Shown here in pieces: positions 23,704 through 25,947 of a DNA stretch of 47,202 nucleotides. How positions within the stretch are numbered: position 1 is the first letter of the stretch; every line of letters starts with the position of its first letter. The stretch is from the NCBI GenBank assembly GCA_029858565.1, contig JAOUEV010000026.1, forward strand, positions 1 through 47,202. Direction: 5' to 3'. A program made the translations under genes and the position numbers. Source of the stretch: Nitrospirota bacterium. GTDB lineage: Bacteria > Nitrospirota > UBA9217. A model generated the notes under the pieces. The model had not been told where the DNA came from and did no database searches. It saw nothing but the letters and a program-made list of their open reading frames with translations.

Positions 23704-23834
23704 TCAGAGAGTTGCATGCCGATGCATTTCAACAATAAGATGTCCCTGCCTTGACAAACCTTCGTAACCCCATCTACAATTAAAACTTAAGTTGTCATCC
23801 GGAGCGATCGCAGCCTTGGCAAGGAGAAGCATCC

Positions 23835-24482
23835 ATGGGCGTTATCAATATTATGATCGTGGACAGCGACCCTGTACAGCTCGAAAAATTGTCCGCCTCT
23901 TTTGGTGCTTCACAGGATATTCGTGTCATATCATCGGTCTCCAAACGCGAGACCGCCATCAAGCAGCTTTCCCTGGAGCCGCAGGTGATCATCCTGAATC
24001 CCGATATTCTGAAACAGCGCACGCTTTCCCGTTTTCTCAGGTCGCTTCAGTGCAAACTGCCTATGACCCGGGTTCTCATGGTACATGCATCCCGGCCTGA
24101 TGATGAGGTCCTGATCGAGGAGATCCGTCTCGGTGTCCGGGGGTACCTTCGCGCATCCGATCCTGCGGCAATGCTGGCCAAGGCTGTGCGCTCTGTTGTC
24201 TCAGGAGAGATCTGGGCGGAACGGCGCATCCTGGAAAAGACCATTGCAAAACACATGTTGATGCCTGATACGCTCAGGGAACGGGTGCCGGACCTTGATC
24301 CGCTTACCAGCAGGGAAATGGATATGCTCACCATGGTCATGAAAGGTTCTTCGAACCGTGAGATCGCTGAACAGAGCAATATCAGCGAGCGGACCGTCAA
24401 GACCCACCTTTATCGGGTATATCGCAAACTCAAAGTGAAAAGCAGGGCAAAGGCAATCGCGCTGTTGTCGCACACATCCTAG
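23835..24482 (+). CDS. NarL/LuxR-type response regulator with atypical (Asp-less) receiver
   Basis: REC-like N-terminus with IILN where the phosphoacceptor D is expected; LuxR HTH LTSREMDML..SNREIAEQSNISERTVKTHL. Confidence 0.88.
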   Translation: MGVINIMIVDSDPVQLEKLSASFGASQDIRVISSVSKRETAIKQLSLEPQVIILNPDILKQRTLSRFLRSLQCKLPMTRVLMVHASRPDDEVLIEEIRLGVRGYLRASDPAAMLAKAVRSVVSGEIWAERRILEKTIAKHMLMPDTLRERVPDLDPLTSREMDMLTMVMKGSSNREIAEQSNISERTVKTHLYRVYRKLKVKSRAKAIALLSHTS

Positions 24483-24690
24483 CCCTGTCGACGCATTCCA
24501 TCAAACTCCCTGGCTAATTCATGAGAATTTCGTGCCGTGGAGAGCACTGTTCCCGTCAGGCTGATGATGTAAAGTCAAGGGATGATGCTCTTGTATGATT
24601 CAGGAACGTAATACAAGGTTATTCCTCGCTTACGAAGAAACCTATTTCCCGTTATATTCTGCAATTCCATAAAATACGAACTTAGGTCCA

Positions 24691-24718
24691 TTGACACCCG
24701 CAGGGGTACTGCTATGAT
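24691..24718 (+). promoter_or_regulatory. sigma70-type promoter with extended -10, not followed by a credible ORF
   Basis: TTGACA-16 nt-TATGAT, with TGn extension. Confidence 0.65.
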
Positions 24719-24724
24719 TGATGC

Positions 24725-24958
24725 AAACGGCGACGCTGTGCGCCGCGGGGATCAGTCCGCACCCTTCATCCCTCTCATCATCCTATCCCCCCCAAGGAAG
24801 GCTGCGGAAGATGTGGTGAACTGATACCCTGCGACGCGGGTGAGCATAAGGTGTTCCATCACCCCAGTATCTTGATGTGACAGCGTTGCTTAGGGCGTCC
24901 CGATGTTCGGATGATCATCATGATACTCCGTCGAGAACATCGGGACGCCGTGTTCTTG
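24725..24958 (+). ncRNA. putative novel structured small RNA with a C-rich apical loop
   Basis: Closing stem 24729-24739/24880-24890, nested helices, 29-nt CU-rich loop, 15-bp perfect 3' hairpin 24894-24908/24935-24949; G-U pairs favour the + strand. Confidence 0.55.
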
Positions 24959-25065
24959 CAGCAGATTCGCTCGCACTTTCCCGCACGATTTCCTGCACTT
25001 CTTGCAATCCAGCCGGTTATCACCTACAATAGAAGCAATTGATGGTTTTCTCTTCTCCTCATACT

Positions 25066-25947
25066 ATGAAGGACGATCTGCTTCGCCGTTATATCGACTA
25101 TCTTGCCGTGGAAAAAGGGCTTTCCAAGAACACCCTTGAGTCCTACGGCCGCGACCTGAGAGGATATTTCCTTTTTTTTAGGGACCGGGAAGCAAAAAGC
25201 ATCGATAAAAAGGATATCGAGGTTTTTCTTGGTTCACTTTCAACTGCAGGGATCGCGGCACCTTCCATCGCGAGATGTTTAGCCGCCGTGCGGGGATTTC
25301 ACAAGTATCTTCTCATGGATGGTCTGTCGGACATCGACCCGACTTCCGCCATAGAGGCGCCGCGCGGCTGGAAACGGCTGCCCAAGACGCTTAACGGGGA
25401 AGATGTGGTCTCACTGCTGAACCAGCCCGATCTGAGCAATCCCCGGGGTCTTCGCGACAAGGCCATGCTCGAACTTCTTTACGCGACCGGCCTCAGGGTG
25501 AGCGAACTGGTCGGCTTGAACGTTGCCGACGTGAACCTGGAACGGGGCTTCCTGATCGTGGTCGGGAAGGGGAGCAAGGAGCGTATCGTTCCCCTCGGCG
25601 AGATCGCCGCAGGCCACGTGCGGGCCTATGTCGAACGGGGACGTCCTCTCCTGATGCGCGGTCATCAGGCTGATGCGCTCTTTGTGAGCAACCGGCGGCA
25701 TGGGTTGACGCGGCAGCTTTTCTGGGAACGGATCAAGCACTATGTGGCCAAGGCGGGCATCAGCAGCAAGGTCTCACCGCACACGCTCCGCCATTCCTTT
25801 GCCACCCATTTGCTCGATAATGGCGCTGACCTTCGCGCGGTACAGGCAATGCTCGGTCACGCGGATATCTCAACAACGCAGATATACACCTATGTGTCAC
25901 GCGAACGGCTGAAGCAGATCCACGAGAAGCACCATCCGAGAGGGTGA
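25066..25947 (+). CDS. xerD: site-specific tyrosine recombinase XerD
   Basis: EKGLSKNTLESYGRDL, RDKAMLELLYATGLRVSEL, HTLRHSFATHLL, LGHADISTTQIYT, HHPRG; start may be 25039/25042. Confidence 0.92.
   Translation: MKDDLLRRYIDYLAVEKGLSKNTLESYGRDLRGYFLFFRDREAKSIDKKDIEVFLGSLSTAGIAAPSIARCLAAVRGFHKYLLMDGLSDIDPTSAIEAPRGWKRLPKTLNGEDVVSLLNQPDLSNPRGLRDKAMLELLYATGLRVSELVGLNVADVNLERGFLIVVGKGSKERIVPLGEIAAGHVRAYVERGRPLLMRGHQADALFVSNRRHGLTRQLFWERIKHYVAKAGISSKVSPHTLRHSFATHLLDNGADLRAVQAMLGHADISTTQIYTYVSRERLKQIHEKHHPRG

Follow-up and report, generated by a model that had tools for sequence, protein, structure and literature searches.

What is encoded by the roughly 230 nt that lie behind a strong promoter, between a LuxR-type regulator gene and xerD, on contig JAOUEV010000026.1 of a Nitrospirota bacterium? 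A reading made from the sequence alone had proposed a novel small RNA (sRNA) that presents a C-rich, anti-Shine-Dalgarno-like loop. Here, the whole 47,202-nt stretch of DNA that was analysed is called the window. All coordinates are positions in it, G000 denotes its genome, and other G-numbers denote the genomes of relatives. The element is an independently transcribed, intrinsically terminated, conserved and structured sRNA gene, and we are highly confident that it is a real, conserved non-coding RNA (ncRNA) gene. The best overall explanation of what it does, to which we give an even chance, is a stand-alone structured sRNA with a C-rich loop that works by base-pairing in trans.

A small RNA gene and its family

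The gene is preceded by a sigma-70-type promoter (Table 1). Its -35 hexamer TTGACA (24691-24696) and its -10 hexamer TATGAT (24713-24718, within TGcTATGAT) are separated by a 16-nt spacer. The predicted 5' start lies about 7 nt past the -10 hexamer, and the 3' end follows the terminator tail. A covariance model matches the locus from 24721 to 24958 with an E value of 9e-33. The TTGAC of the -35 hexamer is conserved at all 42 assessable related loci. As scored, 40 of these loci have a spacer of 16-17 nt and a TAnnnT -10 hexamer, mostly with a preceding TG; at the remaining two, the script picked up an earlier TTGAC. No + strand open reading frame of at least 40 aa exists from 24483, directly after the stop of the upstream gene at 24482, to 24876. 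The strong promoter and the lack of a reading frame, both claimed in the sequence-only reading, are thereby confirmed.

How widespread is the gene? BLASTN of the element against 40 relatives gave no match, because sequence identity is low and not because the RNA is absent. Orthologues of the upstream regulator were found in 18 relatives, and the DNA behind them was read. At 15 of the 18 loci, a conserved box, TTGACA and an extended -10 hexamer are followed by a similar RNA. These 15 RNAs have a GCGCUGU...ACAGCGC closing stem, a C-rich stretch, and a terminator, GGCGUCyCGAU...AUCGrGACGCC, followed by Ts. Together with the window copy they made up the 16 sequences of the first covariance model. 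Full-length covariance-model matches are present in 42 of the 64 genomes of the bacterial family, with E values from 5e-17 to 3e-55. The sRNA gene is single-copy in each genome except G063, which has two copies, giving 43 sequences. It is present in 16 of the 19 genera of the family, and the order contains only this one family. Among 151 sampled genomes of the phylum, only the sRNA's own family gave full-length matches; the 123 genomes from 21 other families gave none, just three short hairpin-only matches. As judged from the genomes sampled, the RNA family is confined to one bacterial family. By BLASTN, the window copy is the sole copy in its genome and has no repeats. The search also holds a practical lesson, in that synteny and a covariance model were needed to find relatives where BLAST gave none.

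Is the RNA already known? At gathering score, Rfam 15 gave no match in the whole window and none in the 15 relatives' loci. At E <= 10, only three chance matches appeared, at 11-16 bits and on the opposite strand. A literature search found no account of this sRNA family or of a Nitrospirota regulatory RNA; the supplementary motif lists of ncRNA surveys were outside its scope and might list the motif. The RNA family is uncatalogued, lying outside Rfam 15 and the literature searched.

The housekeeping RNAs of the genome sit elsewhere. The 6S model matches G000:C27:51021-51197 with 89.3 bits and does not match the sRNA locus, and the signal recognition particle (SRP) RNA, tmRNA and RNase P RNA are on other contigs. 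6S RNA (RF00013) resembles the window RNA in its size (~180-230 nt), its strong promoter and its high degree of pairing. In contrast to 6S RNA, the window RNA has no 6S match, is lacking in one third of the family, and is predicted thermodynamically to form a closed three-way core plus a terminator, without a central bubble. The claims that the RNA is not SRP RNA, tmRNA or RNase P RNA, and that it lacks the open bubble of 6S RNA, held up, and the Rfam search proposed as a check of novelty matched no family.

The outcome is a well-delimited RNA family for a Nitrospirota group known almost only from metagenomes. As a resource, the family offers 43 sequences and a covariance model fit for use, along with a conserved promoter and a regulator that may be dedicated to it. 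No existing idea is overturned; C-loop regulators are already a familiar kind.

Structure and expression of the RNA

The + strand from 24720 to 24960 has a minimum free energy (MFE) of -106.6 kcal/mol, compared with -81.3 +/- 4.8 for 200 dinucleotide shuffles (z = -5.22). None of the 200 shuffles folds as well, which bears out the extensive folding seen by eye. The - strand folds nearly as strongly (z = -4.75), as hairpins would give, and folding energy alone therefore cannot tell the strand. Most of the pairings named from the sequence are in the MFE structure: the closing stem, CGCGGGG/CCCUGCG, AUCAGU/ACUGAU, the side hairpin, and the perfect 15-bp 3' stem of the terminator (24894-24908 paired with 24935-24949). 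The apical pairings are not. CCGCA/UGCGG and CCUUC/GAAGG, with a 29-nt C-rich loop, belong to an alternative fold 3.4 kcal/mol above the MFE (-101.0 vs -104.4). The C7 run is unpaired in both folds.

Table 1. Coordinates of the sRNA gene, its structural elements and its regulatory surroundings in the window.
Feature	Position	Strand	Details
LuxR/GerE-type regulator, 215 aa, pseudo-receiver N-terminal domain	23835-24482	+	GerE 2e-21; Response_reg 20.4 bits
Conserved upstream box TGCAAyTCCAnAAAATACrACTT	24660-24683	+	just 5' of the -35 hexamer; 1-nt insertion in the window copy
Sigma-70-type promoter	24691-24718	+	11/12 consensus score; extended -10 TG present
sRNA gene	24725-24958	+	~234 nt; from covariance model, fold and RNA-library contig
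P1 closing stem, 5' strand	24729-24739	+	GGCGACGCUGU; pairs with 24880-24890 in MFE structure
Long irregular arm bearing the C-rich loop	24744-24833	+	form specific to the window genome's subtype; MFE structure
C-rich apical region	24768-24796	+	C7 run at 24787-24793
Side hairpin GGGUGA...UCACCC	24838-24864	+	MFE structure
P1 closing stem, 3' strand	24880-24890	+	ACAGCGUUGCU; MFE structure, RNAalifold, covariation
Intrinsic terminator	24894-24958	+	15-bp stem GGCGUCCCGAU...AUCGGGACGCC of conserved sequence, then U-rich tail

Is this structure conserved? RNAalifold on a MAFFT alignment of the 16 sequences gave a 12-bp P1, with UA, GC, CG and AU at one position, and the terminator. Subfamily alignments reveal a common plan. 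P1 encloses P2 (for example GGAAGC/GCUUCC, CGGCGAC/GUCGCCG or AUGCCGG/CCGGCAU), P3 (a short GCGGC/GCCGC hairpin with the C-run in its loop), an AGAGUCCGCCArC motif and a variable hairpin; P1' and the terminator follow. A second model, containing P1, P2, P3 and the terminator, was used to align all 43 sequences. In this model-fitted alignment, 89.9% of cells pair, as opposed to 33-48% when the partners are slid by 1-3 columns. Compensatory changes occur in 24 of the 36 pairs, and the covariation score is 0.306 compared with at most 0.077, a value reached by none of 500 shuffles. By helix, compensatory pairs number 9 of 12 in P1, 6 of 6 in P2 (which is only 77% paired), 2 of 5 in P3 and 7 of 13 in the terminator. 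Because the alignment of 43 is fitted to the model, the count was repeated on a MAFFT-only alignment of 14 sequences. There, 91% of cells pair compared with 34-46%, the score is 0.274 compared with at most 0.089 (0 of 500 shuffles), and 7 of the 12 pairs of P1 are compensatory. Structural conservation among relatives, which had been named as a check, is thus present in the homologues collected, with covariation in P1 and the terminator.

The copies of the window genome, G003, G012 and G047 form a divergent subtype, whose interior misfits the main model (34-37 bits). Here the C-rich region is on a long arm, and the arms of G012 and G047 are similar to that of the window copy. The detailed fold drawn from the sequence holds for the window genome's divergent subtype and not for most family members, in which the interior differs.

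The sequence of the terminator stem is conserved with G-U and A-U exchanges (UA in 28 copies and UG in 15 at one pair; CG in 21, UG in 14 and UA in 8 at another). Read on the other strand, the frequent G-U pairs would become A-C mismatches, which identifies the + strand as the RNA. In 41 of the 43 copies, the 10 nt that follow the stem include at least five Ts; the tail of the window copy has 5 T (GUGUUCUUGC) and is weak. The stem sequences GGCGUCyCGAU and ACAGCGC are conserved beyond the needs of pairing, and a CCAnC motif is nearly invariant.

Two further helices are not claimed. Both a possible pseudoknot of the GUCCG motif with a downstream CGGGC and a GAUG/CAUC helix were seen on 14 sequences, and their covariation was unremarkable on 39. 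In the main type, the GAUGCC after AGAGUCCGCCArC is complementary to the GGCGUC of the terminator 5' arm (alignment A3 columns 128-134/211-217; window ~24893-24899). This pairing, seen on 14 sequences and unremarkable by covariation on 39, holds in 82-87% of cells with little covariation, and may be an alternative pairing or a coincidence.

Is the RNA made? Thirteen sequencing runs share words with the stretch, one of them an RNA library; runs beyond X8, X2, X3 and X4 have small shares only. Run contigs were compared over 24400-25100. The metatranscriptome run gave a single 214-nt contig over 24739-24951, wholly inside the predicted RNA. It is 95-99% identical and therefore comes from a near strain. 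Unlike this contig, the contigs of three DNA runs extend over the flanks. The contigs show neither transcript ends nor strand. The RNA-library contig is a hint that the sRNA is expressed. Within the RNA, each strain difference listed lies in a predicted loop or an unpaired stretch, including three in the loop of the side hairpin (24849, 24850 and 24855), or turns a G-C pair into G-U. Those listed in the promoter are all within the spacer.

The C-rich loop and the possible action of the RNA

The trait that points to a mode of action is the C-run. Of the 43 copies, 39 have a run of at least 5 C, 35 one of at least 6 and 26 one of at least 7, and the dominant C-loop of the family is 5-12 C long. 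Near strains have 8 or 9 C compared with the 7 of the window copy. The C-run has a mean predicted unpaired probability of 0.82, in contrast to 0.40 for the RNAs as a whole; in 38 of 43 copies the value is above 0.7. By eye, many members could form a UUCUU/AGGAA stem that closes a loop of C7 alone. The loop is therefore conserved and, by prediction, exposed, as had been claimed. An exposed and conserved C-run is one defining trait of trans-acting C-rich-loop sRNAs, which are a functional class and not a homology family, and the window RNA shows this trait.

Several members of this class are well known. The C- or UCCC-rich loops of RsaE/RoxS, RNAIII and RepG (HPnc5490) pair with G-rich or Shine-Dalgarno sequences. 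These are unrelated to the window RNA in sequence and host, and they are set apart from it by the Rfam scan alone, which gave no match. The closest working analogues of the window RNA are sX13 and 6C. By means of its C-rich apical loops, sX13 of Xanthomonas is reported to repress mRNAs with G-rich motifs close to where translation starts (PMC3771888). That paper also mentions RNAIII and HPnc5490. As far as this description goes, the window RNA is like sX13 in being a stand-alone sRNA with C-runs in apical hairpin loops. It differs in that sX13 is short, has three C-rich loops and is Hfq-independent, whereas the window RNA is ~230 nt long with one dominant C-loop in a closed multi-helix core. 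The two share no sequence or model similarity, as judged by the lack of an Rfam match. The 6C RNA of Actinobacteria is reported to be a conserved sRNA that binds several mRNAs by its C-rich loops (PMC6486639). On that description it belongs to another phylum and has another architecture, and the window RNA has no Rfam match. The window family would add an independent case to the pattern of C-rich loops and G-rich ribosome-binding sites seen in Xanthomonas, Actinobacteria, Staphylococcus and Helicobacter. An independent case would support a repeated origin of that solution.

How might the RNA work? Its transcription would be set via the box at a fixed distance from the -35 hexamer, and the LuxR-type pseudo-receiver regulator encoded just upstream is the most plausible factor to act on this box. 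The C-run (C7 in the window) and the pyrimidines on either side of it would base-pair with G-rich stretches in or close to the ribosome-binding sites of a subset of mRNAs. This pairing would block translation or alter mRNA stability, and Hfq may be bound at the U-tailed terminator. To C-loop base-pairing as a mechanism, drawn by analogy with the RNAs above, we give a chance that is close to even, or slightly less.

The chaperones encoded by the genome fit this proposal. Hfq is encoded, with a canonical hfq at C126 (109 bits) and a tandem pair at C38. In the window genome, which is 100% complete, neither CsrA nor ProQ was found. The lack of CsrA and ProQ, together with the presence of Hfq, removes a Csr-type sponge and makes an Hfq-type or chaperone-free pairing RNA the ordinary reading. 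A CsrA sponge was rejected also on the grounds that the conserved loop is C-rich and that the RNA has no repeated GGA motifs, and a ProQ partner was rejected with the failure to find ProQ. Of the traits of Hfq-dependent sRNAs, the family has the terminator with a U-rich tail (41 of 43 copies), and the genome has the Hfq gene. The tandem Hfq-domain reading frames, at G000:C38:36246-36623, score 54 and 57 bits.

A number of observations weigh against an sRNA that pairs in trans through its C-loop. In the 64 genomes, the 13-mer complement of the consensus loop, with at most one mismatch, is no commoner than a reversed control. A 9-mer scan of the window genome gave 1185 matches compared with 470 for the control, a difference confounded by common GAUGAUGAG-type codons. 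The window genome contains 615 runs of at least 6 G, 113 of which lie 3-14 nt before a possible start, and a C7 seed alone is therefore unspecific. The ribosome-binding sites of this genome are of the ordinary AGGAG type (6-fold enriched). Against the start region of the cognate regulator, the loop beats shuffles (<=0.06) in 6 of 15 genomes; this duplex gives no signal in the window genome (z = -0.63), and the pattern does not covary with the length of the C-run. G009 and G016 have a clean six-G run before the regulator start, and their RNAs have a longest C-run of 3. For the proposed anti-Shine-Dalgarno role, the complement, G-run and regulator-start searches found no mRNA target, and the regulator mRNA is a weak lead. 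Selective action on Shine-Dalgarno-led transcripts among many leaderless mRNAs, also put forward in the sequence-only reading, is speculative.

The remaining points of this kind concern the RNA and its gene. Four of the 43 copies have no run of 5 C, and three of these read ACCCUCUU there. Most seed-type sRNAs are smaller and less elaborate than this RNA of ~230 nt, whose multi-helix core is conserved. When all 43 sequences are aligned (MAFFT auto, L-INS-i and G-INS-i), RNAalifold recovers P1 and the terminator but neither P2 nor P3; support for these two helices is therefore limited to the main type. Of the 64 genomes, 22 lack the gene, among them 2 of the 3 other species of the same genus, and it is therefore not essential. 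In four genomes of genus g10, maf is followed by the RNA and xerD without an intervening regulator, and 11 genomes keep the regulator without the RNA. The expression check yielded its positive sign from one low-depth contig of a near strain, and RNA libraries can contain DNA.

Could the RNA act on a protein instead? P1, the terminator stem, CCAnC and the poly-C loop would then form a platform that binds or sequesters a protein, with a poly(C)- or KH-type binder or the regulator itself as candidates. We consider this unlikely, while granting that several features suit it. The size and the conserved multi-helix core, the stem sequences conserved beyond pairing and the nearly invariant CCAnC would be expected of a platform, the searches for mRNA targets gave none, and the near-consensus promoter points to an abundant RNA. 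However, the analysis yielded no candidate partner; CsrA was not found, and there are no repeated GGA motifs. The U-tailed terminator and the Hfq gene fit ordinary sRNAs. Conserved terminator stems, moreover, are common among sRNA families, which counts against the platform.

The regulator, the upstream box and the flanking genes

The gene upstream of the sRNA encodes a regulator with a GerE domain. Its N-terminal half matches Response_reg below the cut-off of 30.2 bits, and of 19 orthologues, 13 have Asn and 3 have Asp at the phospho-acceptor position. The label of pseudo-receiver is therefore fair, given the weak receiver match and the Asn at the acceptor position. The association with the RNA is strong, with maf and then the regulator directly upstream of the RNA in 37 of 42 assessable loci, and the claim of an adjacent pseudo-receiver regulator stands. 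Among the 64 genomes, 37 have both the RNA and the regulator, 5 have the RNA only, 11 have the regulator only and 11 have neither. In the 11 regulator-only genomes, the locus was read and an unfiltered search was made, and the RNA is truly missing.

The core of the conserved box upstream of the promoter, AAT[AG]N[AG]AC[TA][TA], lies exactly 18 nt ahead of the -35 hexamer in 30 of 42 loci. The pattern of box plus -35 has ~69 matches in the 64 genomes, as opposed to ~20 for a reversed control. Of the ~69, 31 are the sRNA locus, which makes the pattern near-unique to the sRNA promoter. Seven other matches were fetched; three are within coding sequence by reading, and one is intergenic (G014). As a regulon marker, the box led to no second conserved promoter in the 64 genomes. 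We infer that the box is an UP element or an activator site. That the neighbouring regulator controls the sRNA is a tentative proposal, and we hold it to be possible but not the likelier outcome.

Some of the other matches are of interest in their own right. In G010, a near-identical 23-nt box-plus-promoter match recurs at six places, of which four are no more than 300 nt from the start of a contig; it probably represents a repeat or the end of a mobile element. G024, G063 and G067 have one near-identical box-plus-promoter match each. The intergenic site in G014 (G014:C3:216567 onward; L131) has a similar box and -35 hexamer, with a strong terminator ~190 nt further on. This site, which has no Rfam match, may mark another sRNA of that genome.

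The arrangement recalls a known type of system. GacA/UvrY acts with RsmY, RsmZ or CsrB, which work by sequestering CsrA through many GGA motifs. The likeness lies in a NarL/FixJ-type regulator (GerE helix-turn-helix) of ~215 aa and in an sRNA promoter with conserved upstream sequence. In contrast to those systems, CsrA was not found in the window genome, the RNA is C-rich and not GGA-rich, and the acceptor Asp is missing in most orthologues.

Do the regulator and the RNA form a closed feedback module? The LuxR-type protein would activate the RNA via the box, and the C-loop would pair with a G-run at the ribosome-binding site of the regulator mRNA. Synteny and the nearly unique box at its fixed distance speak for such a module. 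In addition, a run of at least 5 G stands just ahead of the start, as an apparent ribosome-binding site, in 8 of 17 regulator orthologues, compared with a run of 5 G in 51 of 2927 crude start windows of the window genome, and the loop-regulator duplex beats shuffles in the six genomes mentioned above. However, the regulator of the window genome has an ordinary AAGGAG ribosome-binding site in place of the G-run, and there is no duplex signal there. G017 has the G-run but no RNA, the six-G regulators of G009 and G016 are paired with RNAs of short C-runs, and, as noted above, either gene can occur at the locus without the other. The feedback module is thus distinctly doubtful. We attach a similarly low probability to a wider two-gene module. 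In this scheme, an orphan, phosphorylation-independent regulator would have the sRNA promoter as its main or only target, and the ~230-nt RNA would be the output arm that acts on a regulon of G-run ribosome-binding sites and feeds back on the regulator's own site. The conserved multi-helix core would have a role beyond seed presentation, for example in binding a protein or sensing a signal.

Could the RNA instead be a cis-acting leader or attenuator of the downstream gene, such as a riboswitch or a protein-dependent terminator for xerD? The order of promoter, structured RNA, terminator and same-strand gene would suit this role. The downstream gene varies, however. It is xerD only in the window's own genus and in g10; elsewhere it is a membrane-protein gene, which in many relatives we take to encode an M48-like peptidase, a gene for a protein that we take to be GAF-like, or others. 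The distance to it also varies, downstream genes have promoter-like sites of their own (25002-25030 in the window), and the RNA-library contig stops at the terminator. A cis-acting role is very improbable. A divergent housekeeping RNA (6S-like or other) or a non-functional palindromic or mobile remnant, for which the good folding of both strands and the strong promoter might be cited, is scarcely credible: the 6S, SRP, tmRNA and RNase P RNAs lie elsewhere in the genome, 22 genomes do without the RNA, the window copy is single and free of repeats, and the covariation and G-U pairs argue for a selected + strand RNA.

The stand-alone sRNA with its C-rich loop is set among flanks that differ between relatives. 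In a genus g17 subgroup (L116-L119; G066, G069, G071 and G072), the regulator and a degenerate box and promoter are kept. The RNA body is a short remnant, with CCCCCC in one copy and no conserved terminator. This looks like the decay of an sRNA gene. The distance from the regulator stop to the sRNA promoter is 208 nt in the window (24483-24690), compared with 10-40 nt in most relatives. The corresponding spacer in G012 is ~150 nt long and of partly similar sequence, and run X3, from a near strain, departs from the window sequence upstream of 24621. The regulator gene has a conserved promoter of its own (23751-23834; L007-L023), with cTTGACAA, a spacer of ~17-18 nt and TCTAAAAT or TCTACAAT, and a leader of ~55-70 nt.

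On the other side of the sRNA gene, alignment with relatives makes ATG 25067 the most likely start of xerD, rather than TTG 25039. In this region (25002-25070), the short xerD leader is pyrimidine-rich and has no Shine-Dalgarno sequence. In many relatives (L007, L008, L009, L011, L014 and others), the downstream membrane-protein gene starts 7-9 nt past a TATGAT-type -10 hexamer. Its mRNA looks leaderless, in agreement with an earlier remark that leaderless mRNAs are frequent in the window genome.

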